From an uncultured Alphaproteobacteria bacterium (lineage in GTDB: Bacteria; Pseudomonadota; Alphaproteobacteria; UBA11222), in the NCBI GenBank assembly GCA_947085295.1, contig CAMTVX010000028.1:26148-90147 (forward strand): a DNA stretch of 64,000 bases, read 5' to 3'. A program made the translations under genes and the position numbers. The notes beneath the pieces were generated by a model. The model did not search any database. It worked only from the letters and a program-made list of their open reading frames with translations, and was not told the DNA's origin. Of the stretch, positions 1,419-18,812 are shown in pieces. The number at the start of each line of letters is the position of its first letter. Position 1 is the first letter of the stretch.

Positions 1419-2729
1419 TCAGGCCTTTCGCGCCCAGATGGCATAATCCATCGGTCCATACAGCAGCCTGTTCAGGCGCATTGCAACGGCATCGTCACCC
1501 TGCAACTTCTGCGCCTCGTCCGCCTCGTGCAGATAAATCACTTCGGCATTCAAAAATCCGCGCTGTTCCACCATGAAACGTGAAACCGATGGCGGCAATG
1601 GGGCCCGGTGCGTGGGATCGTTCCAGAACGTACTCGCACCCACAATCAGATTTTCCGGATTGGGCGTTTCAAACAGAATGAACCCACCCGGGGTCAACAC
1701 CCGATTAGCTTCGTCAATAATGCGGATTAAATCATCCAGCGCCAGATGCTCTATAATGTGAAAACCTGTCAGGCCCGCAAGGCTTGCGTCCGGCAGGCTT
1801 TGCAAATGCGCCAGCGCCTCTGCTTCACGCACATCAAGATTGGCTGTGCGCGCATCCGCGACAAATACGCTGTTCAGATCAATGCCGTACGCCTTAATGC
1901 CGCTTTCTGCCAGCAATTCAATCCACTCGCCACGTCCGCACCCAATATCCAGAACCGGCAAATGTGTCGCTGCAACTGACATGCGATCCATATAAACTTC
2001 AAGTCGGCTTTTGATCTGTTCGCGGCTTCCACGAAATGCCGCCTCGAACGCCGCGTAATAGGAATCCAGCGCATCCGTGCGCGCTGGCATGGTGACGCCA
2101 ACAGCCGCTGCCCCGGCACCTGACTGCAATGCCGGTGCTGCCAGCGCAGCCGTAAGTCTGCGTTGCTGAAAAACCATCTCTGAACGATTTTCGGCACTGC
2201 GCCTTTTTTCTTCGTCCACTTCCTGACGAAGCGCCGTGGTATGCGCAAGATTAAGTTCCTGGGCCACTTTCAAACGCTGTTCGACAAAACTCATTTCCTG
2301 ACGCAATTCATCCAGACGCGCATTTACCTCACCCAGACGGGCATTGGCCTCACCCAGACGCGCATTAAAACGATGCTCGGCCGCGCCAAGTTCGCGAACT
2401 GTCATTTCAAGACGCCCGCGCGTTTCATGCACCAGCGCCAGACTTTTCAGCCAGCGCAATCCATAACCAAGATAAGGCACGGCCAGCAGCCGCGCACCAA
2501 TCTGTCTTTGCCGTTGCCACTGATTAAGCATTGCCATCGCAGAGCCTATAACGGGTATGCCGCGCAGACGCATCTTCAGCGCCAACAGGGCCGATGTCTT
2601 ATAACCTGATGCCAATTGGCCACCTGCTGTCAATGCGGGAACGCCATGCTGTTCGGGTTGCAGCATTTCAACAGCGATACGCCGTTCCAGTGCGCCATAA
2701 TCTATGTCGGGGTTGTTGGCCTCGATCAT
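1419..2729 (-). CDS. Class I SAM-dependent methyltransferase with an N-terminal coiled-coil region. It is a candidate glycan chain-terminating/modifying enzyme, WbdD-like in role but with the reverse domain order.
   Basis: The ORF track gives 1419..2774. The SAM-binding motif VLDIGCGRGEWIELL is present. The coiled-coil segment contains the heptad-like tandem repeat NARLGEANARLGEVNARLDELRQE. Met16 at 2727-2729 forms an ATGA overlap with the wzt stop, so the shorter start is preferred. Confidence 0.8.
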   Translation of the reverse strand: MIEANNPDIDYGALERRIAVEMLQPEQHGVPALTAGGQLASGYKTSALLALKMRLRGIPVIGSAMAMLNQWQRQRQIGARLLAVPYLGYGLRWLKSLALVHETRGRLEMTVRELGAAEHRFNARLGEANARLGEVNARLDELRQEMSFVEQRLKVAQELNLAHTTALRQEVDEEKRRSAENRSEMVFQQRRLTAALAAPALQSGAGAAAVGVTMPARTDALDSYYAAFEAAFRGSREQIKSRLEVYMDRMSVAATHLPVLDIGCGRGEWIELLAESGIKAYGIDLNSVFVADARTANLDVREAEALAHLQSLPDASLAGLTGFHIIEHLALDDLIRIIDEANRVLTPGGFILFETPNPENLIVGASTFWNDPTHRAPLPPSVSRFMVEQRGFLNAEVIYLHEADEAQKLQGDDAVAMRLNRLLYGPMDYAIWARKA

Positions 2730-3961
2730 GGCGCTGTCACGGCGATTTTGTGCAGGCTTGGTTCCAGCCTGCACAAGCCATCAAAATGTGGTCCTGAATA
2801 GCCGGCCACTTCGAATTGCAACAGATTATCGCACCAATGATAGCAATCCGTAAGGTGGTTATCCTTATCGTGCAATGCGGCCGTTAGCGTATAAAGGCCC
2901 GGCCCAAGATTCATCGCCATGCGAATTGAAAAACTGATGCGTTCGCCTGCTTCAAATGACAAAGGATAGCCAAGAAAATAGGTGTTGGTCCCGTATATAT
3001 CCTGCCCCAGACGGTCACGTATCAAAAACCCAAGCGTCACCGACTGCATCGCCCTGGTTGCCGCTAGATCAAAAACAAAATCGGCGACTTCACCAGAGGC
3101 GAATATCTGGCTGCCGGATATCTGTCCGGTGACTTTCGCCCCACGGATACTCACAACGCCGGAACCATAGCCGCGCGCGATTTCAGTATCGTTGGCAACC
3201 GGCGCTTGCGGTTGCTGGTGCTGCAGGGATGGGGCTACCTCATCCAGATCTGCAATCAACCGGTAATAATAATTCACTGCCTCTTCGGGCGTACCGGAGA
3301 AAACCGTTTTGCCTTCTTCCAGAACCATTGCCGTGTCACACAGAACCTTGACCGCATTCATATCGTGCGAAACAAATAATATCGCGCCCCCGCCAGCGCG
3401 AAATTCCTTGATGCGCTTCATGCATTTTTGCTGAAAATGCGCATCGCCAACGGAAAGCGCCTCGTCCACCACAAGACATTTCGGGTTGGCGTGGATGGCA
3501 ATAGAAAATGCCAGGCGCATCGTCATGCCGGATGAATAGGTGCGCACTGGATGGTGGATGACATCGCCCAATTCGCTGAAATCCACAATGGCCTGACGCT
3601 GTTGCGCCACCTCTGCCTGCGTCATGCCAAGCAGCGCCGCGTTGAAGGCGATATTATCGTAACCGGTCAATTCCGGATTGAACCCGGTACCCAATTCCAA
3701 CAGGCCTGTCACGCGCCCGGACAGCGTAACGCTGCCCTGATCTGGCAGGATGACCCCCATTACCAGTTTGAGCAGTGTTGATTTTCCCGCGCCATTGCGG
3801 CCAATCACCCCCAGCACCTGCCCTGCTTCAAGATTGATGCTGATATCCTGAATCGCCAGCTTTTCTTCATGCAGCTTGCGGCGGAAAATCAGTTCACGCA
3901 GCCGGTCGCTATGGCGCAGATAGATCCGGTAATACTTGCTTACATGGTCAACCCTGATCAT
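2726..3961 (-). CDS. wzt: ABC transporter ATP-binding protein, Wzt-like, with a ~170-aa C-terminal extension (putative glycan-terminus-binding domain).
   Basis: Walker A motif GRNGAGKST, LSGG-type signature and Walker B are present. An extra C-terminal beta-rich domain follows the nucleotide-binding domain. The gene sits directly after an ABC-2 permease and before a glycosyltransferase/methyltransferase. Confidence 0.8.
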   Translation of the reverse strand: MIRVDHVSKYYRIYLRHSDRLRELIFRRKLHEEKLAIQDISINLEAGQVLGVIGRNGAGKSTLLKLVMGVILPDQGSVTLSGRVTGLLELGTGFNPELTGYDNIAFNAALLGMTQAEVAQQRQAIVDFSELGDVIHHPVRTYSSGMTMRLAFSIAIHANPKCLVVDEALSVGDAHFQQKCMKRIKEFRAGGGAILFVSHDMNAVKVLCDTAMVLEEGKTVFSGTPEEAVNYYYRLIADLDEVAPSLQHQQPQAPVANDTEIARGYGSGVVSIRGAKVTGQISGSQIFASGEVADFVFDLAATRAMQSVTLGFLIRDRLGQDIYGTNTYFLGYPLSFEAGERISFSIRMAMNLGPGLYTLTAALHDKDNHLTDCYHWCDNLLQFEVAGYSGPHFDGLCRLEPSLHKIAVTAP

Positions 3962-3981
3962 GGTAACCCTGCCCCAACCGA

Positions 3982-4752
3982 TTAAATCGCATCGCGAATC
4001 TGGTGTTCGCTATGCGACAGAAGCCAGAGTATGCCACCTGCCATAAGGACGCTTCCAGCCAGCAACTGCATTATGTTTCCCATGTCCGGCATCGCGCCAT
4101 AAACAAAAATCTGATGATATTCACGCACAAACCACCATGCAGGATTGAACGCCTGAATGGCCTGCATGAAATGGGGCACGGAATCAATGGTGTAAACAAT
4201 GGGCACCATCCAGAACCATAACATGGTCACGACCCCGACCATTTCGCGAATGTCGCGCAGAAACACCATCAGAATGGCCCCGATCAGGCCAATTGAAAAA
4301 GCCATGAGCTGCTGACAGATAATCAATAGCGGCAACGCCAGCAAACCCGCAGACAGCGGAACCGACAATGCCAGACTCAAAAGGATAAACAGGCCAAGGG
4401 TGCAGATCAGGGTGATCCCTTCCACAATCGGAATATGGATCGCAATGAGGTTCAGGCTGAGCGGGACTTTGCTGAGTATGGCGCGCTTGTCAAAGAACAC
4501 GGTGGTCATGCGCGCAATAGTGCTGGCAAATGCGGTCCAGGGCAAAATTCCCGAAACCAGATAGATGCCATAGCCATATGTACCGGACTGCGTTCCCGGC
4601 AGGCGTGGGCCTATCAACCCCCCAAATATCACAACAAATATAAGGATTTGCAGCATCGGTGTCAGCAGCAGCCAGCCCCTGCCAAGTGCAACACCAGAAT
4701 AGCGGTCAGAAAAATCCTGCCTGACAAAGTGCCATAATAAAGCAAGGTTCAT
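3982..4752 (-). CDS. wzm: ABC-2 family polysaccharide export permease (Wzm-like).
   Basis: A 256-aa protein with six predicted TM helices. It is the first gene of the operon, 20 nt upstream of wzt. Confidence 0.75.
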   Translation of the reverse strand: MNLALLWHFVRQDFSDRYSGVALGRGWLLLTPMLQILIFVVIFGGLIGPRLPGTQSGTYGYGIYLVSGILPWTAFASTIARMTTVFFDKRAILSKVPLSLNLIAIHIPIVEGITLICTLGLFILLSLALSVPLSAGLLALPLLIICQQLMAFSIGLIGAILMVFLRDIREMVGVVTMLWFWMVPIVYTIDSVPHFMQAIQAFNPAWWFVREYHQIFVYGAMPDMGNIMQLLAGSVLMAGGILWLLSHSEHQIRDAI

Positions 4753-5059: not shown

Positions 5060-6805
5060 ATGAAAGGCAAAGAACAGTCGGAACTGGCCCAGGTTCTTGG
5101 CAAGTCCCGCTCCGCATTTATCGGCGCTGGCGTTTTCAGCTTTTTTATCAATCTGCTGATGCTGGTGTCGCCACTCTACATGTTGCAGATTTATGACCGG
5201 GTGCTGGCCAGCCGGAACGAGACCACTTTGTGGGTATTGACCCTTGTCGCGGTGTTCCTGATTGTTGTCTATGCCGCACTGGAAACCATGCGTTCGCGTG
5301 TGCTGGTGCGCATCAGCGGACAGATGGACAGCCTGTTGAACGCCCGGGTTTTTACCGCTTTGTTCAAATCCGCCGTGCGTGGGCCGGGGGGCGGATCCGG
5401 CCAGGCCATCCGGGATCTGGATTCGGTGCGCGACTTTTTGACCGGACAGGGGCTGTTTGCGTTTTTTGACGCGCCATGGATGCCGCTTTACCTGGCGGCG
5501 ATCTTCCTGATTGATCCCCTATTGGGCTGGGTGGCGACGGCGGGGGGTGTGACATTATTCGGACTTGCCGTGCTCACCGAAATTGCCACGCGCGATACAC
5601 TCAGTGAAGCAAGTGTCGCAAATATGCGCGCCGGGCATTTTGTTGAGGTCAGCCTGCGCAATGTCGAAGCGATTGAGGCGATGGGCATGGTCCCCGCCAT
5701 GCTCAAGCGCTGGCAGGGTCGGCGCGCCAAAATGCTGCAATTGCAGTCGCTGGCCAGCGACCGTGCGGGTGTCATTACGGCCTTGTCCAAATTCACACGC
5801 GTTGTATTGCAAATCGCCATTCTGGGCTTTGGCGCCTATCTGGTGATCCATGATCAAATCACGGCTGGTCTGATGATCGCCGCATCCATTATGATGGGCC
5901 GCGCTCTGGCGCCTGTGGAAATCGCGGTTGGTAGCTGGAAGCATTTTCTGACGGCCCGCAGTTCTTATGACCGCCTGAATGCCTTGCTCAAGGCCGTCCC
6001 CCCCCAACGTGACTTTATGCACCTGCCACCGCCGCTTGGCATTCTACAGGTGGAACAGGCCATTGTTGTGCCACCCGGCGCCACCGTGCCCGCGCTGAAG
6101 GGCGTGGGGTTCAATGTGGCCGCTGGCGATATTGTTGGCATTATCGGTCCCAGCGCTGCGGGAAAATCCACACTGGCGCGCTTGCTGGTTGGCGTTTGGC
6201 CAGCTTATGCCGGCAAGGTGCGCATTGATGGCGCCGACATTATGACCTGGGACCGTGAGCGCCTTGGCCCCTATATGGGCTATCTGCCGCAGGATGTTGA
6301 ATTGTTCGAGGGCACCATTGCCGAGAATATCGCCCGCTTTGGCGAGGTGGATGCGGATCAGGTAATTCTGGCAGCACAGCGCGCCGGGGTGCATGAGTTG
6401 ATACTCAAACTGCCCGCAGGATATGACACACAGATCGGGCCGGGTGGCCAAACGCTTTCCGGTGGCCAGCGCCAGCGCGTGGGTCTTGCGCGGGCATTAT
6501 ATGGCGACCCGGCGATTATCGTGCTGGATGAGCCCAACTCCAATCTGGATAATGATGGCGAAGCGGCACTGGCACGAACCGTTGCCGATCTGAAAGCGCG
6601 CAAGCGTACAACACTGGTAATTACGCACCGCCCCAGCCTGCTGGCGTCGGTTGACTATATTATGGTGATGCGCGAAGGATTAATCGAAAAATTTGGTCCG
6701 CGAGATGAGATTCTGGGTCAATATCTGCGTCCCGCTGCCGTGCCCAGCACGCCTGCCGAACCGGAACCCAACAGAGGCGGCGTAGCGGTGGTAAATCCGG
6801 CATGA
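5060..6805 (+). CDS. prtD: Type I secretion system ABC transporter (PrtD/AprD family; permease-ATPase without a C39 peptidase domain).
   Basis: The N-terminus FIGAGVFSFFINLLMLVSPLYMLQIYDRVL is typical of T1SS ABC exporters. It has a C-terminal nucleotide-binding domain with GPSAAGKST, LSGGQRQR and IVLDEPNSNLD. Confidence 0.85.
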   Translation: MKGKEQSELAQVLGKSRSAFIGAGVFSFFINLLMLVSPLYMLQIYDRVLASRNETTLWVLTLVAVFLIVVYAALETMRSRVLVRISGQMDSLLNARVFTALFKSAVRGPGGGSGQAIRDLDSVRDFLTGQGLFAFFDAPWMPLYLAAIFLIDPLLGWVATAGGVTLFGLAVLTEIATRDTLSEASVANMRAGHFVEVSLRNVEAIEAMGMVPAMLKRWQGRRAKMLQLQSLASDRAGVITALSKFTRVVLQIAILGFGAYLVIHDQITAGLMIAASIMMGRALAPVEIAVGSWKHFLTARSSYDRLNALLKAVPPQRDFMHLPPPLGILQVEQAIVVPPGATVPALKGVGFNVAAGDIVGIIGPSAAGKSTLARLLVGVWPAYAGKVRIDGADIMTWDRERLGPYMGYLPQDVELFEGTIAENIARFGEVDADQVILAAQRAGVHELILKLPAGYDTQIGPGGQTLSGGQRQRVGLARALYGDPAIIVLDEPNSNLDNDGEAALARTVADLKARKRTTLVITHRPSLLASVDYIMVMREGLIEKFGPRDEILGQYLRPAAVPSTPAEPEPNRGGVAVVNPA

Positions 6806-8232
6806 GTTTACAGAATATTGCGGTCCGTCTGGGTCTTCACCAGGAAGGACAGGATACTTTTAATTTCAAATCCGTATTCGATAACGCCGTGCAGCGTGTG
6901 CAGGAGATGTTTGCGCGTTCGGATCAGGAAGGCGCTGACACCAGCGCGCAGACAGACACACGTCGGCCGCTGGTGGTTGGCGGCATCATTATCGTGGTGA
7001 CATTTTTCGGGTTCGGCCTGTGGGCGGCGATTGCGCCCATCGACAGCGCCGCCATTGCCCCCGGCTTTCTGACGGTGCAGTCAAGCCGGCGCACCATCCA
7101 GCATCTTGAAGGCGGCATCGTACAGGAAATTTTTGCCAAAGACGGCATGACAGTAAAAGCCGGCGATGTATTGATCCGCCTGGACGACACCCGCGCCAAG
7201 GCGCAGACAGACATTCTTCTGGCCGATCTGCATTCACAGCTTGCCACCGAAGCGCGCCTGCTGGCGGAACGCGACGGCCTTGCGGCCCCCGTTTTTCCAG
7301 AGGAGCTGCTGAAAAACCAGTCCAATGCAACGATTACCGCAATTCTTGCCGGCCAGAAAAATGTATTCGACACCCGCATCAACGCGCTTTCCGGGCAGAA
7401 ATCCATTTTGCAGCAGCGCGTCGGGCAGTTTGATGAACAGATATCCGGCCTGCGCGCGCTGGTAACCGCAAAGGGTACCCAGGCACGTCTTATCAAAGAG
7501 GAATTGAAGGATTTATCCGGCCTGCTGGAGCGTGGCTACGTCACCAAAACCCGCGTTCTTGCGCTGGAGCGTGAAGAGGCGCGCCTTGAAGGCGAACGCG
7601 CCGAACATATCGCTGCCATCGCGCGTTCCGAACAGGGTATTGGCGAATCCAAACTGCAAATTTTTCAGTTGGAAAAATCCCGCCAGGAAGAAATCGCCCG
7701 TGAATTGCGCGATGTTCAGGCCAAAATAACCGAACTGCGCGAACGCATGGTCGCCGCCAGCGACATGCTGCGCCGCATCGATATTGTCGCGCCGGTTTCT
7801 GGTACGATCATGGATCTGGCCGTACATACCGCCGGCGGGGTCATCGGGCCGGGTGTGCCCTTGATGGATATTGTGCCATTGAATGATGTATTGGTGGTCG
7901 AGGTGCACATTAATCCAATCGACATCGACACCGTCCGCCCTGGCAGCGAAGTCGCCCTGCGTATCAGCACAGTTGATTCCCGCAAAACTCCTGTGATCAA
8001 TGGGGTTCTGGAGACCATTTCAGCCGACCGCACCGTAGAACAACGCACGGGTATGGCATATTACAAGGGGCGCGTCATCATACCTACTGCACAGCGCGAA
8101 CGGCTTGGCACACTGACCCTGCGCAGTGGCATGCAGGTAGAAGCACTGATCAATCGTGGTGAACAGACAGCCCTGCAATATGCGCTGAAGCCATTGACCG
8201 AAGCCTTCGCCAAATCCTTCCGCGAACATTAG
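6802..8232 (+). CDS. Type I secretion periplasmic adaptor (HlyD/PrtE family membrane fusion protein).
   Basis: One N-terminal TM helix, a long coiled-coil region and a C-terminal beta-barrel. The 4-nt overlap with the upstream ABC gene indicates translational coupling. Confidence 0.85.
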   Translation: MSLQNIAVRLGLHQEGQDTFNFKSVFDNAVQRVQEMFARSDQEGADTSAQTDTRRPLVVGGIIIVVTFFGFGLWAAIAPIDSAAIAPGFLTVQSSRRTIQHLEGGIVQEIFAKDGMTVKAGDVLIRLDDTRAKAQTDILLADLHSQLATEARLLAERDGLAAPVFPEELLKNQSNATITAILAGQKNVFDTRINALSGQKSILQQRVGQFDEQISGLRALVTAKGTQARLIKEELKDLSGLLERGYVTKTRVLALEREEARLEGERAEHIAAIARSEQGIGESKLQIFQLEKSRQEEIARELRDVQAKITELRERMVAASDMLRRIDIVAPVSGTIMDLAVHTAGGVIGPGVPLMDIVPLNDVLVVEVHINPIDIDTVRPGSEVALRISTVDSRKTPVINGVLETISADRTVEQRTGMAYYKGRVIIPTAQRERLGTLTLRSGMQVEALINRGEQTALQYALKPLTEAFAKSFREH

Positions 8233-8246
8233 GGCCGATAAAAGCC

Positions 8247-9656
8247 ATGCCGGTAATTTTTCGCTCTTCCACTTTAGCTGCGCTTGCCCTGCTGGCATGT
8301 GTTCCATCGGCGCAGGCGGCGCAATCGCTGGACGAGGCGATGGCGGCGGCGTATCGCAGCAATCCACAATTACAGGCCGAACGCGCCCGTCAGCGCGCCA
8401 CAGACGAAGGCGTTGCCCGCGCGCTTGGCGGCTTTCGCCCAACCATCGTCGTCACCGGCGAAGCAGGCCGCGCGGTGGACGAATTTCGCACACGCAACAC
8501 ATTCTCTGGCGCAACGAATGTCACAGATGTTAATCGCGGGCCGCGCACCTATCAGGCGCAGATGCGTCAGCCGATCTATGACGGGGGTCAGGCAATAAAT
8601 GATTACCGGCGTTCAGAAGCCATTGTCGAGCAGGGCCGCGCGCGTCTCATTTCGGCCGAACAGGCTGTGCTTGCCGAAGCTGCGCGCGCCTATGTCGATG
8701 TCGCGCGTGATTTCCGTGTGGTTCAGCTTACCCGCGATAATATCGAATATTTAACCGAGGTAGAAAAAGCCATTCGCGCCCGCTTTGCCGTCAAGGACGT
8801 CACCAATACCGATGTGGCGCAGGCTGATGCGCGGCTGGCGCGCGGCCTTGCCGATAATCAGGCGGCCGAAGGCGCATTGGCCCGGTCGCGTTCCGCCTAT
8901 GCGCGGGTGGTCGGCGAAGAAACCGATGGCGCGCTGGATATGCCGCCCCCGCCCGATAAATTGCCCGATACGCTGGACGCAGCGCTGGGTGATGTGGAAA
9001 ACAACCCTGAACTGCGCTCAGCGCGCTTTGTAGAAGTTGCCGCCCGTGCCCAGATCGGCGTCGTACGCAGCGGCCTGCTACCGGATTTATCGCTGCGCGG
9101 GGCCGTGCGCCGGCAGGACGAGGCCGACCAGAAACATTTCGAACGCGACACCGCCGAAGTGCTGGTGCAATTATCCGTACCGATTTACGAGGGTGGCATA
9201 TCAGCCGCGCAAACCCGCGAAGCCAAGCATATCGCCAGCCAGCGGCAGCTTGAGCTGGAACAGGCCACCCGCGCCGCCACCGACGCAGTACGCGCCGCCT
9301 GGGAGGGGCTGATCAGTTCACGCGCCCGCATTACCTCGATCCGCGAAAATGTTACGGCGGCAGAACTTGCCCTGGTCAGCGTCACCGAAGAAGCCAAGGT
9401 CGGCGCGCGCACCGTGCTGGACCGGTTGAACGCCCAGCAGGAACTGCTCGACGCCAGCGTCGCACTGCTGCGCGCCCAGCGTGATGAATTTATCGCCAGC
9501 AATGATCTGCTGACCGCCATCGGCAAAATGACCGCCATCAACCTTGAACTGCCCGTGGAACATTACGATCCCGTGGCAAATTACGCCGATACCCGTGGCC
9601 GCTTCTTCGGCACCGGCATTTCCCCCATCGAAAATCCTGCGCCCGAAGTGAAATAG
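8247..9656 (+). CDS. tolC: TolC family outer-membrane channel for type I secretion.
   Basis: Signal peptide MPVIFRSSTLAALALLACVPSAQA. Two internal repeats of the TolC fold. It lies immediately after the adaptor gene. Confidence 0.85.
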   Translation: MPVIFRSSTLAALALLACVPSAQAAQSLDEAMAAAYRSNPQLQAERARQRATDEGVARALGGFRPTIVVTGEAGRAVDEFRTRNTFSGATNVTDVNRGPRTYQAQMRQPIYDGGQAINDYRRSEAIVEQGRARLISAEQAVLAEAARAYVDVARDFRVVQLTRDNIEYLTEVEKAIRARFAVKDVTNTDVAQADARLARGLADNQAAEGALARSRSAYARVVGEETDGALDMPPPPDKLPDTLDAALGDVENNPELRSARFVEVAARAQIGVVRSGLLPDLSLRGAVRRQDEADQKHFERDTAEVLVQLSVPIYEGGISAAQTREAKHIASQRQLELEQATRAATDAVRAAWEGLISSRARITSIRENVTAAELALVSVTEEAKVGARTVLDRLNAQQELLDASVALLRAQRDEFIASNDLLTAIGKMTAINLELPVEHYDPVANYADTRGRFFGTGISPIENPAPEVK

Positions 9657-9797
9657 CTTATTGGCGGCATCGGCAGCCCGCCTGTGCGTAAACGATTTCA
9701 CACTTGACACCCCCCGGCAACCATCCGGTAGACTTACCCGATGGGGGCGAGGTGGGGGCAAACGCGGATGGGATTCGAAGATGCGGCCCGTTTTATG

Positions 9798-10127
9798 GGC
9801 ATCGGCCTTATCGCATGGCTATCACTATTGGCTGTGCTGATTGCATACAGAATGCTGACCGGCGCCATATGGACGCGCGGAATTTTAAGTAACGCCCAAG
9901 AAGACGGAACAAGCCATATAGATATGGAGCGTTTGCAGCTTCTGATCATTTTCCTTGTCAGTGTCGCTTTCTATATCAAGACGGGTCTGGCGGCGCTTGG
10001 GCAACCCGGGACGCTCACCATTATGCCCGAACCGCCGGAGCTGTTCCCTGAATTGCTGCTGGCAAGCAACGCCATCTATCTGGCCGGAAAATATGGCCGG
10101 AAAATACAAAAAGGAGATACGCCATGA
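9798..10127 (+). CDS. Small integral membrane protein (hypothetical), paralogous to the next ORF.
   Basis: The ORF track starts at 9741; the internal Met (MGIGLIAWL...) is preferred. Two to three TM helices are predicted. The segment MERLQLLIIFLVSVAFYI resembles RFQFLIFTFVIAGLYTI in the next ORF. Local GC is ~48%. Confidence 0.5.
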   Translation, partial: GIGLIAWLSLLAVLIAYRMLTGAIWTRGILSNAQEDGTSHIDMERLQLLIIFLVSVAFYIKTGLAALGQPGTLTIMPEPPELFPELLLASNAIYLAGKYGRKIQKGDTP

Positions 10128-10462
10128 CGCCGGTCAATATTGCCCTGTGGGGATTTATACTGCTTGGCAGCATCATACTTGGCTTTGCAGCGATTGTGCT
10201 GTGGAAGATTGGCTCCGGCGAAATTGATATAACCCGTCTGATCAGTGAGCCCGCTACTGACCCCAATAATGCGGGTGAAAATCAAAAGGGCAGCCTGTCG
10301 CGATTTCAGTTCCTGATCTTTACCTTCGTCATTGCGGGCCTGTACACCATCCTGTGCATTGAAAGCGGAACCCTGATCGAAATTCCGGATAGCGTGTTGC
10401 TGTTACTGGGCATCAGCGGCGGCAGCTTTCTTGTTTCCAAAGGCATCAGCGCCAATAAATGA
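10124..10462 (+). CDS. Small integral membrane protein (hypothetical), a tandem paralog of the previous ORF.
   Basis: About three TM helices. ATGA overlap with the preceding ORF. Same architecture (TM, polar loop, TM, TM). Confidence 0.5.
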   Translation: MTPVNIALWGFILLGSIILGFAAIVLWKIGSGEIDITRLISEPATDPNNAGENQKGSLSRFQFLIFTFVIAGLYTILCIESGTLIEIPDSVLLLLGISGGSFLVSKGISANK

Positions 10463-10484
10463 GCTTCTGGAGTGGATCTGTAAA

Positions 10485-11315
10485 ATGCAGCGTATACTGA
10501 TCATTATTGCATTAATCGCCTTCGCCACACCGTCAATGGCTGCGGACCCCACGGATATCACCCCGTGCGAAAGCATGTTTGCAGACACCGGCATGCCATC
10601 CTATCGCGGGGATTTTGACGAAGATCATCATAGTTTGCGCTGCCGCCTGGGCTATGTGCTTTCGCATAATAACGAAACCCGCATTCCTGACTGGGTGTTG
10701 CAGGAATTGCCCGACGGTCAGATATCCGGCGCGGCAAAGCGCAAAGACAATTTCAAAGCGGACGACAGCCTGCCCCCGGAAACCCGTGCAGAAAAAAGCG
10801 ACTATAAGGGCAGCGGCTTTGATCAGGGCCATCAGGCGCCCGCCGCTGACTTCAAATCAAGCCAGGAGATGACGGATGAGAGTTTTTTACTCTCGAACAT
10901 GGCCCCGCAAGTCGGCCTGAGTTTCAACCGTGGAATATGGGCGCATCTGGAAGAGCAGGTGCGCGACTGGCTTGACACCCGCAGCCGCCTGATCGTCATT
11001 ACCGGCCCGGTCTATGACGCGCCAGATCTGAACGTGCCGAAAGTGCCTGCCATTCCAAAACCCGGCGCCGGGCAGGCGGAACCTGAACGGGTTGCCGTTC
11101 CTGCCGCCTTCTACAAAATCGTCTATGATCCGGAAATCGGGCGCGCTATTGCATTCCTGATGCCGAACAAGAAATTGCCGAAACGCAAACCAGCAGAATT
11201 TCTTGCCTCCATCGCAGATATAGAAGAGCGCACCGGGCTGGACTTCTTCACCACGCTGACCAAACGCCGCCAGCGCACCCTTGAAAGCAACGTCTCGCCC
11301 ATGTGGGAGCATTAA
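10485..11315 (+). CDS. Secreted DNA/RNA non-specific endonuclease (Serratia/NucA family, beta-beta-alpha-Me).
   Basis: Sec signal peptide MQRILIIIALIAFATPSMA. DRGH-type catalytic motif DQGHQAPAADF, with the downstream metal-ligand Asn in LSNMAPQ. The ORF track start (10431) was trimmed to the Met that begins the signal peptide. Confidence 0.8.
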   Translation: MQRILIIIALIAFATPSMAADPTDITPCESMFADTGMPSYRGDFDEDHHSLRCRLGYVLSHNNETRIPDWVLQELPDGQISGAAKRKDNFKADDSLPPETRAEKSDYKGSGFDQGHQAPAADFKSSQEMTDESFLLSNMAPQVGLSFNRGIWAHLEEQVRDWLDTRSRLIVITGPVYDAPDLNVPKVPAIPKPGAGQAEPERVAVPAAFYKIVYDPEIGRAIAFLMPNKKLPKRKPAEFLASIADIEERTGLDFFTTLTKRRQRTLESNVSPMWEH

Positions 11316-11362
11316 CGCACAACTCTGGCTATAACACAGCCATTTAGACTATACTGCCCGCC

Positions 11363-13576
<2,214 letters not shown>

Positions 13577-15352: not shown

Positions 15353-16129
15353 ATGACACCCATGACAGCACCACATCATAAATCCGCCCTCGTCACCGGC
15401 GCATCGCGGCGTATCGGGCGGGCCATTGCGCTGGGGCTGGCTGCCGATGGGTGGCGGGTGGCGGTGCATTATGGCGGTTCCGCCAAAGATGCGGAAGCGA
15501 CAGTGGCGGATATTCGGGAGGCGGGCGGCGAGGCGATTGCGGTGCAGGCCGATCTGGCGGACGCGGCGGCGCTTGATGCGCTGATTCCGAAGGCGACGGC
15601 GTCGCTTGGCCCGCTAAGCTGCCTCATTAACAACGCCTCGGTGTTTGAGAACGACCGGGTGGCGGATTTCACCCGCGCTTCCATGACGCATACGCTGGGC
15701 GTTAATCTGCTGGCCCCGGCGCTGCTGACACAGGCGTTCGCCAGGCAGCTTCCCAAAGGCGCGCCGGGTAATGTGATCAATATTCTGGATCAGCGGGTAT
15801 GGCGGCTGACACCGCGCTATATTTCCTATACGCTTAGCAAAAGCGCGTTGTGGACGCTGACACAGACCATGGCCATGGCGTTGGCCCCGGCGATACGTAT
15901 CAATGCCATTGGCCCCGGTCCGACATTGCCGAATGACACCCAGGATTCGGCGCAGTTCGCCCGCCAGGCGGGATCAACCATTCTGGAGCGTGGCGCAGGG
16001 CTGGACGAAATCACGGCGGCGGTGCGGTTTATTCTGTCTTCGCCCTCCATGACCGGGCAAATGATTGCGCTGGATGGTGGCCAGCACCTGGCCTGGGAAA
16101 CGCCCGATATTGCGGGCATGGAGGATTAG
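15353..16129 (+). CDS. SDR family oxidoreductase, likely a pteridine/dihydrofolate reductase FolM-type enzyme given the downstream folB.
   Basis: Cofactor motif TGASRRIGRAIA and a catalytic YxxxK (YTLSK). It lies directly upstream of the dihydroneopterin aldolase gene. Confidence 0.75.
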   Translation: MTPMTAPHHKSALVTGASRRIGRAIALGLAADGWRVAVHYGGSAKDAEATVADIREAGGEAIAVQADLADAAALDALIPKATASLGPLSCLINNASVFENDRVADFTRASMTHTLGVNLLAPALLTQAFARQLPKGAPGNVINILDQRVWRLTPRYISYTLSKSALWTLTQTMAMALAPAIRINAIGPGPTLPNDTQDSAQFARQAGSTILERGAGLDEITAAVRFILSSPSMTGQMIALDGGQHLAWETPDIAGMED

Positions 16130-16250: not shown

Positions 16251-16604
16251 GTGTTTATCCGCGATCTGCTGCTGGATGCGCATATTGGCGTGCATAAGCA
16301 TGAAAAGGGCCGCCGCCAGCGGGTGCGTATCAATATCGACCTGACGGTGCTGGAAACGGCGCCGGATTCCGGTGATGATCTGGCCAATGTGGTGTGTTAC
16401 GAAGATATTGTCGAAAAGGTGAAAACCCTGATCGAAGCCGAGCATATCAACCTGGCCGAAACCATGGCCGAACGCATTGCCGGGCGCTGTCTGGAAGACG
16501 CCCGCATCGTGGTGGCGCGCATCCGGGTGGAGAAGCTGACCGTGATCGCAGAGGCCGCCAGCGTGGGTGTGGAAATCGAACGCAGCAAACCGGGATTTCG
16601 TTAA
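16251..16604 (+). CDS. folB: Dihydroneopterin aldolase.
   Basis: VRHVFIRDLLLDAHIGVHKHEKGRRQRVRINIDL matches the FolB N-terminal consensus. A GTG start at 16251 is preferred over the ORF-track ATG at 16065, which overlaps the SDR gene. Confidence 0.75.
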   Translation: MFIRDLLLDAHIGVHKHEKGRRQRVRINIDLTVLETAPDSGDDLANVVCYEDIVEKVKTLIEAEHINLAETMAERIAGRCLEDARIVVARIRVEKLTVIAEAASVGVEIERSKPGFR

Positions 16605-16870
16605 AACATCTGAATTAATCATTTGCCCTATTGACTCGCGAAGGCCTCTGGACTAGCCCCCCCGGAAAAGTTTGTTCACAGAATGAAAAAACATGACAAT
16701 TGCTAAGGTTTTATGACGCTTTCGTATAAAAATGACAAAATCACTCCGATGTCGGATTAAATTGTTTATTAGTATCAGATAGTTAGGGTGGTGACTAAAA
16801 ATTAGGCAGTTTAAGGAAGTCTTAGGGTTTCTGCGTGACTCCGGCCCGTTTGAATAGTTTTCACACATGT

Positions 16871-16893
16871 TTATCCACAGCTTGCGTGGATAG
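16871..16893. promoter_or_regulatory. Inverted pair of DnaA-box-like 9-mers (TTATCCACA gcttgc GTGGATAG) inside a 325-bp AT-rich intergenic region upstream of uvrC.
   Basis: Exact TTATCCACA at 16871-16879 and an 8/9 reverse match at 16886-16893. The surrounding 16605-16931 is ~40% GC and has no ORF. Confidence 0.4.
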
Positions 16894-16931
16894 TAAACTC
16901 TACCCTTCTGGTTACGGCTCTGACCTCATTC

Positions 16932-18812
16932 ATGCAGGAAAATTCTCCCAATTCAGACGCCGAAAAAGGTCCAAAAACGGGCCCGGAGGTGATCTACGCC
17001 TATCTGCGGCAACTGCCCCACAGTCCGGGCGTGTACCGCATGCTGGGCACCCGGGGTGACGTGCTGTATGTCGGCAAGGCGCGCAGCCTGAGAAACCGGG
17101 TTTCCAGCTATACCAAGCTGACCGGGCAGACGGTGCGCATCGGCCGCATGATCCAGGCCACCGCTTCGATGGAATTTATCACCACCGAGACGGAAACCGA
17201 GGCGCTGCTGCTGGAAGCCAATCTGATCAAGCGGTTGAAGCCCTATTACAATGTGCTGCTGCGCGATGATAAAAGCTTTCCCTATATTCTGATCACTGGC
17301 GGTCATGATTTTCCGCAACTGGACAAGCATCGCGGCGCGCGCAGCCGGGCGGGCGAATATTTCGGGCCGTTCGCCAATGCAGGCGCGGTTAGCCGAACCC
17401 TTAACACCATGCAAAAGGCGTTTTTGCTGCGTTCGTGCACCGATGCGGTGTTTGCCAACCGTACCCGGCCCTGTCTGCTGCATCAAATCAAGCGGTGCAG
17501 CGCGCCCTGTGTCGGCTTTATCGATGGCCCCGCCTATACCGGGCTGGTCGCGCAGGCGCGGGATTTTCTGGCGGGCGGAGGGGCAGAGGTGCGCGCCGGA
17601 TTAACGGCTGCGATGGAGCAGGCGTCCGAGGCGCTGGATTTTGAACGCGCCGCCACGTTTCGCGACCGCATCCGCGCGATGAGCGCGGTTCAGGCGCATC
17701 AGGGCATTAATCCGCAAACCCTGCTGGAGGCCGATGTATTCGCGGCGCATCAGGAGGGCGGGCAAACCTGTATTCAGGTGTTCTTTTTCCGGGCCGGGCA
17801 AAACTGGGGCAACCGCGCCTATTTTCCACGCGCCGATAAATCACTGAGCGCGGCTGAAATACTGGGGCCGTTCATCGTGCAGTTTTACGACAATAAGCCA
17901 TCGCCAAATCTGATTTTACTGTCGCATGCGGTGGAAGGCATGCCGCTGATTTGCGACGCGCTGACGCTGCGATCGGAACGTCGGGTTGAGATCGCCGTTC
18001 CAAAACGCGGCGAGAAATTCGAGATGGTGCAGCATGCCCTTAAAAACGCGCATGAGGCCCTGGATCGCAGACTTGCCGAATCCGCCTCGCAAACAAAACT
18101 TCTACAGGATGTGGCGACCACATTTGGCCTGGACGCGCCACCGCAGCGCATCGAAGTCTATGACAATAGTCATATTCAGGGTAGTAACGCGGTGGGTGGG
18201 ATGATTGTTGCCGGGCCGCTGGGGTTCGAGAAAGGCCAATACCGCAAATTCAACATGCGCAATGAAGAACTGACCCCCGGCGATGATTACGCCATGCTGC
18301 GCGAGGTGTTGACGCGGCGCTTTCAACGGCTGTTGCGCGAAGGCCCGCGCGAAGAGAATGGCGCGTGGCCGGGTCTGGTGCTGATTGATGGCGGGGCCGG
18401 GCAACTTTCCATCGCCGTAGAGGTGCTGCGCGAGCTGGACATTACCACCGTGCCGCTGGTGGCGATTTCCAAGGGGCCGGACCGCAATGCCGGGCGTGAA
18501 CAGTTTCACGTGCCGGGCCAGCCGGTGCGCAGCCTGGAACCGCGCGATCCGGTGCTGTATTTCCTGCAACGGCTGCGGGACGAGGCGCACCGTTTTGCCA
18601 TCGGCGCACACCGCAACGCCCGCGCACGGGCCGCGACCGCTTCGCCGCTGGACGAAATGACGGGCATCGGGCCTCGGCGCAAGCGCGCCCTGCTTAATCA
18701 TTTTGGCTCGGCCCGCGCGGTTTCCCAGGCGGGGCTAAGCGATCTGGAAGCCGTGCCGGGCATCAGTACGGCCATGGCCAAACAAATTTACGCGCATTTC
18801 CATGATGGATAG
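16932..18812 (+). CDS. uvrC: Excinuclease ABC subunit C.
   Basis: GIY-YIG N-terminus ([28 protein letters not shown]), UvrBC-interaction region and a C-terminal RNase H-like/HhH domain. Confidence 0.95.

Follow-up and report, generated by a model that had tools for sequence, protein, structure and literature searches.

A conserved pair of small paralogous membrane proteins precedes a predicted exported endonuclease in Alphaproteobacteria and exchangeable enzymes elsewhere

The window analysed here, a 64,000-nucleotide (nt) stretch of contig CAMTVX010000028.1 from an uncultured Alphaproteobacteria bacterium (UBA11222), contains a module of three genes. Two tandem genes encode small inner-membrane proteins, which we call M1 and M2, and the third encodes a predicted exported endonuclease. 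All positions are given in window coordinates. Judged by gene order and spacing, the three genes form a conserved operon in Alphaproteobacteria, while profile comparisons identify M1 and M2 as ancient paralogs. Beyond the Alphaproteobacteria, the same pair accompanies other enzymes, and the genomic comparison presents it as a constant core with a swappable payload. We hold this anatomy (operon, paralogy, exported and active nuclease, pair with swappable payload) with high confidence. The nuclease alone is ordinary; the novelty lies in the conserved, unannotated pair and its changing payloads. For the function of the pair, we tentatively favour a holin-like membrane gate, with a probability of roughly 0.35, over a membrane platform or anchor.

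A conserved three-gene operon

The open reading frame (ORF) list places three ORFs on the same strand in the region 9741–11315, in the order M1, M2, nuclease, where a preliminary description of this DNA had also seen a three-gene module. The features are as follows.

9768–10127, + strand: M1, small inner-membrane protein of 119 amino acids (aa), first paralog (ORF and public gene calls)
10124–10462, + strand: M2, small inner-membrane protein of 112 aa, second paralog (ORF, ATGA overlap)
10485–11315, + strand: precursor of an Endonuclease_NS protein (beta-beta-alpha-Me, EndoG-like), 276 aa, predicted exported DNA/RNA endonuclease (PF01223)
10485–10541, + strand: predicted Sec signal peptide MQRILIIIALIAFATPSMA, cleavage after SMA (inspection of the sequence)
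10821–10955, + strand: catalytic core with DQGH (His116, 10830–10832), Asn148 (10926–10928) and Glu156 (10950–10952) (alignment)
9704–9734, + strand: possible sigma-70-like operon promoter TTGACA-N19-TAGACT (read by eye; weak evidence)

The start of M1 is most likely ATG 9768, because the public gene calls give a product of 119 aa and M1 homologs measure 119–124 aa. The alternative in-frame ATG, at 9741, lies 6 nt past the end of the promoter-like element (9734). M1 and M2 overlap by ATGA, as previously described, the stop codon of the first and the start codon of the second sharing positions 10124–10127. The nuclease starts at ATG 10485, which is preceded by GGAG, and not at TTG 10431. Public gene calls on identical metagenomic contigs list products of 119, 112 and 276 aa.

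A scan of one genome per species returned 137 loci with an M2 relative, of which the best 80 were kept. These are nearly all from Alphaproteobacteria and span Hyphomicrobiales, Caulobacterales, Rhodobacterales, Rhodospirillales, Sphingomonadales and Kordiimonas. An Endonuclease_NS gene follows M2 directly in 73 of these best 80 loci, and an M1-type frame directly precedes M2 in 77–79. The median gaps are 15 nt between M1 and M2 and 11.5 nt between M2 and the nuclease, with a 4-nt overlap in about 20 loci. Because the order is held in 73 of the 80 loci, and the genes either overlap by 4 nt or stand only a few bases apart, the three genes are, by the measure of synteny, a conserved operon. The comparison of gene order among homologs thus bears out the functional module that had been proposed. 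Departures from the standard order were contig ends, one split gene and a few non-alphaproteobacterial loci.

When all flanking frames were clustered, uvrB emerged as the sole recurrent neighbour, located 3' of the module on the same strand in 24 of the 80 loci. The module had also been described as lying downstream of a type I secretion system (T1SS). Genes for ABC, HlyD and TolC proteins do lie directly 5' of M1 in the window, but this linkage is incidental: among the 80 related loci TolC was found in one, HlyD in none and an ABC protein in four.

The split gene mentioned above is that of locus L015 (Paracoccaceae chromosome OZ252048.1, 6339–9894). Its module nuclease is interrupted by an insertion of about 2.5 kb that separates an N-terminal piece with the signal peptide (6339–6716) from a C-terminal piece (9286–9894). 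L015 is also one of only four loci, with L018, L026 and L052 (Rhodobacterales and relatives), that have a tRNA-Arg(TCT) gene about 100 nt 5' of M1 on the opposite strand. This adjacency may be either lineage-specific synteny or an old insertion site; a tRNA-linked island was considered and rejected, the tRNA gene standing beside M1 in these four loci only.

M1 and M2 are paralogous membrane proteins

M1 and M2 are proteins of about 110 aa with two strong transmembrane (TM) helices, a third, Gly-rich hydrophobic segment and a basic C-terminus, which ends in ...GKYGRKIQKGDTP in M1 and in ...SKGISANK in M2. Both follow a common plan. In the N-terminal half, a strong TM1 and an R-x-Q motif leading into TM2 are separated by a loop (G.I.L.GLL) some 30 residues long; in the C-terminal half, an acidic turn ending in [IL]P is followed by the Gly-rich hydrophobic segment (LLG.S.G.Y) and a Lys.

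Pairwise BLASTP of M1 against M2 gave only E 0.08. Profile–profile alignment with hhalign, on the other hand, returned a probability of 99.2% and E 1.7e-19 over 114 columns, with the two locally similar segments noted in the preliminary description, RLQLLIIFLVSVAFYI and RFQFLIFTFVIAGLYTI, in register. A profile built from 72 M1 sequences detected every one of the 80 M2 sequences, at a median E of 4e-14, but no shuffled or reversed M2 control. The profile evidence therefore upholds the proposed paralogy: M1 and M2 are true, ancient paralogs, as proven at the level of the families only.

The two proteins evolve at different rates. M2 retains 50–63% identity across alphaproteobacterial orders and has 32 invariant columns among 24 diverse members, with the conserved core KxSLSRFQFLIFTFVIAGLY...E.G...IP..L.LLGISGG..V.SK; M1 evolves faster. 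An AlphaFold model of the M2 monomer places helices at residues 3–31 and 58–81 and leaves the C-terminal third ill-defined, at a mean confidence (pLDDT) of 68. One M2 homolog carries a C-terminal IPT/TIG domain, and others carry Ig-like domains and Pro/Ala-rich tails.

Neither M1 nor M2 had a significant match in Pfam, NCBIfam, PADLOC or PHROGs. Profile searches of the PDB were likewise negative, revealing no similarity to ComEC or to any solved protein. A weak match to phrog_1322, a phage membrane-protein family, was obtained from 9 of 20 members (best E 0.002). Four database proteins (P0129, P0164, P0188 and P0242) are apparent M1–M2 or M2–nuclease fusions. Their read-through-like sequence makes them probable frameshift, assembly or gene-calling artefacts, and they were not used as evidence of topology.

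The nuclease is a predicted exported member of a known family

The third protein of the window module matches PF01223 (Endonuclease_NS) with E 1.1e-49 and 169.5 bits (cut-off 23), covering profile positions 17–220 of 223. By inspection, its N-terminus, MQRILIIIALIAFATPSMA|ADP, has the basic n-region, hydrophobic h-region and small residues at −3/−1 of a Sec signal peptide. Comparable N-termini were seen in 68 homologs and in virtually all module nucleases of related loci, in agreement with the export predicted in the preliminary description.

To this picture an alignment of the window nuclease with 67 nucleases of related loci and the Serratia nuclease adds the catalytic site. His116 and the preceding Gly are invariant in all 68 module nucleases, and Asn148 and Glu156 are conserved. 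The three residues align with H89, N119 and E127 of the Serratia enzyme. The preliminary description had called the protein a DRGH nuclease with an intact DxGH...N motif. The family assignment and the intact His, Asn and Glu stand, while the motif itself reads DQGH: at the Arg position of DRGH, 57 of the 68 sequences have R, 5 have Q, another 5 have K and 1 has I.

Cys28 and Cys53 are conserved in the same alignment and probably form a disulfide. These cysteines suggest an enzyme that is inactive until oxidised outside the cytoplasm, and the nuclease should fold and act only there. Ranked by PDB scores, the best match among solved structures is Drosophila EndoG (E 3.4e-32), ahead of mammalian EndoG (~1e-26), EXOG (~2e-25), Anabaena NucA (2.3e-21) and the Serratia nuclease (8.8e-19). 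A search of PADLOC-DB v2 with the nuclease returned only a weak partial Csx25 hit (E 7.6e-4). Taken together, the protein is probably an active, ordinary exported member of a known family.

The pair precedes exchangeable payloads outside Alphaproteobacteria

The M2 family extends well beyond the operon described above. A word search found 663 homologs, and an exhaustive profile search gave 3,323 cluster representatives at E ≤ 1e-3. Its members are found in soil and aquatic bacteria. A metagenome scan with a non-alphaproteobacterial M2 profile yielded 528 loci, of which the best 80, mostly from soil, were kept; together with four contigs from an exact look-up they make up a set of 84 non-alphaproteobacterial loci. 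The M1–M2 pair is present in 79 of the 84, and the remaining five start at a contig end. Members of the family, inner-membrane proteins of 110–140 aa, always stand as a tandem pair. We define the family by this fixed order, the shared R-x-Q, [IL]P and LLG.S.G.Y...K motifs and a payload gene 3' of the pair. All of these are seen in the window pair, which matches both profiles.

Endonuclease_NS follows the pair in none of the 84 non-alphaproteobacterial loci. Payloads were counted in the 62 loci that have a downstream gene. In 43 of them, the third gene encodes a protein that we call family X, at a median gap of 15 nt after M2. X proteins are 290–470 aa long, with two OB-like barrels and many invariant His, Asp, Glu and Cys residues. 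In 42 of the 43 loci, the N-terminus is Arg-rich and followed by a short hydrophobic segment, which may be a Tat-type signal. Searches of Pfam, NCBIfam and PDB sequences with X gave no match; its best structural matches are all SSB, PriB, RPA or Teb1, which points to a tandem OB fold. Carriers include Pyrinomonadaceae, and examples in alignment A3 are L087 4685–5764, L096 5419–6450 and L077 1949–2737. One possibility is that X represents a new exported nuclease or DNA-binding protein.

Gaps between M2 and the payload gene range from 6 to 125 nt. The other third genes fall into two groups. The DNA-related group contains Endonuclease_1, a phospholipase D (PLD)-like lipoprotein (PLDc_2) and a secreted ComEC-type metallo-beta-lactamase (MBL; TIGR00361, region 425–513, E 4.9e-16). 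The second group acts on murein or lipid and comprises GH25 muramidase (two loci), PG_binding+GH19, PG_binding+VanY and a patatin-like lipase. At locus L092 (221–3253), the pair is followed by three peptidoglycan (PG) hydrolases without signals: PG_binding_1+GH19, Peptidase_M15_4 and PG_binding_1+GH19. Export signals are present on the nucleases, the MBL and X, and absent from the murein hydrolases and the patatin.

These loci portray the pair as a constant core with a swappable payload drawn from at least eight unrelated enzyme families. The preliminary description had held that its functional module would fail if the membrane proteins were conserved elsewhere without a nuclease. Taken literally this is the case, the 84 loci having no Endonuclease_NS. 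The module idea is nevertheless refined rather than destroyed, because elsewhere the pair precedes other hydrolases or an exported OB-fold protein equally tightly.

A proposed holin-like gate as the favoured function

Because a conserved pair goes with a swappable hydrolase, the function of M1 and M2 is likely to be generic and exerted at the membrane. We favour a holin-like gate. M1 and M2 would form a hetero-oligomeric inner-membrane complex whose action on the membrane is generic and independent of the payload. In nearly every version of the module, the inner membrane would stand between payload and substrate, with exported nucleases parted from cytoplasmic DNA and signal-less PG hydrolases from periplasmic murein. 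On a trigger, perhaps a fall in membrane potential when the cell is damaged or infected, the pair would open the membrane and bring enzyme and substrate together. In the window version, the periplasmic nuclease would reach cellular or invading DNA, or the DNA would reach the nuclease. The outcome would be controlled death or lysis, with destruction of DNA.

Several properties of the proteins fit such a gate, namely their size, TM plan, basic C-termini, occurrence as tandem paralogs and the weak phrog_1322 match. Tandem paralogs recall holin/antiholin pairs. A specific anchor or inhibitor is disfavoured because it would need to bind eight or more unrelated folds with an M2 that remains 50–63% identical across alphaproteobacterial orders.

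A number of observations weigh against the gate. No M2 relative was found in 2.9 million viral contigs searched with two profiles or in 50,697 phage genomes searched by tblastn; a phage origin, or a recognisable phage holin, was rejected on these grounds. M2 is strikingly conserved, whereas holins usually are poorly so. In PADLOC-DB v2, M1 and M2 had no hits among the defence models and no system model was matched. The module frequently neighbours uvrB, a housekeeping gene, has a possible promoter of ordinary sigma-70-like type and lies in no obvious mobile or defence island. PG hydrolases and patatin account for just 5 of the 62 non-alphaproteobacterial payloads and may be a side branch, and the patatin does not fit the logic of compartment separation. 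The M2 monomer model is of low confidence. Finally, the IPT/TIG domain at the C-terminus of an M2 homolog suggests a periplasmic C-terminus, which would also suit docking.

Docking is the core of the reading that comes second. An M1–M2 heterodimer might serve as a membrane platform that docks or retains the exported nuclease at the periplasmic face and perhaps passes on its products. Its task might be the breakdown of DNA arriving in the periplasm, which would supply nutrients or block transformation or DNA from gene transfer agents (GTAs). Its arrangement might resemble membrane-anchored EndA, EXOG or EndoG, or the accessory domains of ComEC supplied in trans. We consider this platform only slightly less likely than the gate; it keeps the anchor idea of the preliminary description alive as a rival. 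It draws on the exported nuclease being the payload in 73 of the 80 alphaproteobacterial loci and on most other payloads (X with its tandem OB fold, Endonuclease_1, PLD and the ComEC-type MBL) being exported and DNA-related. In ComEC, OB and MBL are the accessory domains. Tight translational coupling of the genes points to a stoichiometric complex, the IPT/TIG or Ig-like domains and Pro/Ala-rich tails of M2 homologs suggest a periplasmic C-terminus that could reach the payload, and strong conservation and a chromosomal place beside uvrB suit a housekeeping-like role. However, a platform leaves the signal-less GH25, GH19, VanY, M15 and patatin payloads unexplained, and a nearly unchanging M2 would need a docking surface that accommodates many unrelated folds. 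The window M2 has almost no C-terminal tail, and hence little periplasmic surface, and conservation is strongest within the membrane segments rather than in exposed parts.

The signal-less PG hydrolases directly after the pair need an export route, and this is where an unlikely third reading finds its footing. M1 and M2 would be a non-lytic translocator similar to a step of type 10 (holin-dependent) secretion; they would carry payloads outward from the cytoplasm or the periplasm and so deliver the nuclease to the medium, for turnover of extracellular DNA (eDNA) and biofilm or for competition. A precedent exists in Serratia, whose nuclease regulon includes the holin-like nucE and the lysozyme-like nucD, and in which a holin and an endopeptidase secrete chitinases. 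The window nuclease, however, comes with a predicted Sec signal peptide of its own, and no PG hydrolase accompanies it in the window module. An inner-membrane protein alone cannot open the outer membrane, and the adjoining T1SS is not conserved with the module.

It is very improbable that M1 and M2 protect the producer from its own nuclease in the manner of NuiA or a toxin-immunity protein, a role that had been raised in the preliminary description and whose sole support is adjacency to a potentially toxic enzyme. As integral membrane proteins, M1 and M2 resemble neither NuiA nor any other Pfam family. The nuclease is predicted to be exported, and its Cys pair suggests inactivity before oxidation outside the cytoplasm. 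Immunity proteins co-vary with their toxins, whereas here one conserved pair accompanies unrelated enzymes of at least eight families. That the genes are mere neighbours without a functional link, or cargo of the T1SS whose genes lie directly 5' in the window, is close to refuted by an order and spacing kept across several alphaproteobacterial orders, by the near-absence of TolC and HlyD from related loci and by a predicted nuclease signal that is of the N-terminal Sec type and not of the C-terminal T1SS type.

Composition, regulation and genomic neighbourhood

The module had been described as having a lower G+C content (GC), of about 48% for the membrane-protein genes. We measured 51.7% for M1, 50.4% for M2 and 56.0% for the nuclease; the module as a whole is at 54.0% and the window at 56.0%. 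GC at third codon positions (GC3) is 56–64% in the three genes and similar to that of neighbouring genes. The dip in GC reflects hydrophobic codon content and is not a signal of foreign DNA; horizontal transfer as judged from composition was rejected, since GC3 does not set the three genes apart from their neighbours.

The spacer of the possible promoter is 19 nt and exceeds the 18-nt limit of the promoter scanner, so the element went unreported by that program. Similar elements (TTtACA...TAnnnT) lie 50–65 nt 5' of M1 in many related loci. In 78 loci, the region 5' of M1 contained none of the alphaproteobacterial SOS, CtrA, PhoB or EcfG boxes and only sigma-70-like hexamers. A Bradyrhizobium data set of transcription start sites contained no entry of use for the module. 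Between the three genes, no terminator- or promoter-like sites beyond chance were detected, the hits being at chance level and inside genes. An Rfam search of the locus gave no match, and a repeat search found no meaningful repeat.

Upstream, the T1SS genes (ABC/HlyD/TolC) occupy 5060–9656 on the + strand. Divergent from them, at 1419–4752 on the − strand, are genes for a Wzm/Wzt-type ABC-2 polysaccharide exporter and a methyltransferase. Downstream, uvrB (11363–13576, + strand) begins 47 nt after the nuclease with no terminator-like site in between, so that read-through from the module is possible. It is followed, 22 nt after its stop codon, by a gene for a 497-aa GapS1-family anti-phage protein (13598–15091, + strand; NF047931, E 2e-116), which has a GC of 45%, against the 56% of the window, and so looks like an inserted defence gene. 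In the Bradyrhizobium locus L168, the slot after uvrB holds a reverse-transcriptase (RVT_1) gene instead (10362–11876). In the window, uvrC (16932–18812, + strand) lies 3.3 kb beyond uvrB, with the GapS1 gene and a short-chain dehydrogenase gene (15353–16129) between them. A low-GC patch (about 42–48%) spans roughly 16400–17000.

Significance

Our search of the full-text literature found no description of the operon or of the M1/M2 membrane-protein family. The pair is nonetheless genomically tied to five nuclease or DNA-binding-like kinds of payload, three kinds of murein hydrolase and one lipase, and the pattern of a constant core with a swappable effector has repeatedly pointed to new secretion, defence and cell-death systems. 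As a gate, the pair would offer a testable bacterial model of compartmentalised nuclease release, in parallel to EndoG; as a docking platform, it would represent a new way to build membrane-bound DNA-processing machinery. Under either reading, more than 3,000 clusters of "hypothetical proteins" and the unannotated exported tandem-OB family X gain a lead to their function.

Comparison with known systems

The window nuclease has the same full-length domain as the Serratia nuclease and Anabaena NucA, with aligned His, Asn and Glu, and it carries a predicted N-terminal Sec signal and conserved cysteines. It differs in its DQGH motif, where those enzymes have DRGH, and is closer by sequence to EndoG and EXOG. 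The Serratia and NucA enzymes are found without an M1–M2 pair, whereas the module nucleases are preceded by one, and the module has no NuiA-like gene. NucA–NuiA does resemble the module in that a sugar-non-specific nuclease stands beside small accessory genes. NuiA, however, is a soluble inhibitor, while M1 and M2 are membrane proteins that belong to no Pfam family and accompany unrelated enzymes.

Holin–endolysin cassettes, type 10 secretion and nucE–nucD share with the module small (~110 aa), multi-TM tandem proteins with a basic C-terminus, encoded directly 5' of a hydrolase. Like holins, M1 (119 aa) and M2 (112 aa) combine small size, at least one TM domain and a charged C-terminus, and in four to five distant loci the pair is joined to a signal-less enzyme of endolysin type (GH25, PGB+GH19, PGB+VanY, M15). 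Unlike holins, they do not lie in a phage or prophage lysis cassette beside an endolysin. They have no homologs in the viral contigs and phage genomes searched and no significant holin-family match, and their conservation is very high. An exported nuclease or an OB-fold protein is what usually follows the pair, and the window has no endolysin.

The DNA-uptake proteins EndA and ComEC offer another comparison. EndA of S. pneumoniae, which belongs to Endonuclease_NS, is retained at the membrane, and in ComEC an OB fold and an MBL nuclease domain are joined to a membrane channel. M1–M2 payloads likewise include an OB-fold protein and a ComEC-type MBL. In contrast, M1 and M2 have no detectable similarity to ComEC, anchoring would occur in trans, and no competence genes were seen nearby.

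A eubacterial origin of EndoG has been discussed in terms of a "protomitochondrial toxin" (PMC10565124), a paper in which we found no mention of a periplasmic location or of membrane partners of EndoG. By PDB scores alone, EndoG and EXOG are the closest solved relatives of the window nuclease. They differ from it in being eukaryotic and nuclear-encoded, and EXOG has its own N-terminal anchor. To our knowledge, neither has an M1- or M2-like partner. Both are located at or on the inner membrane in the intermembrane space, the topological equivalent of the periplasm, and a breach of the membrane sets them free. In its widest form, which we consider a long shot, the gate reading would make M1–M2 pairs a new class of widespread heteromeric gates, not derived from phages, that hold a lethal hydrolase and its substrate apart across the inner membrane until triggered, and the alphaproteobacterial version a bacterial counterpart, possibly an antecedent, of apoptotic EndoG release.

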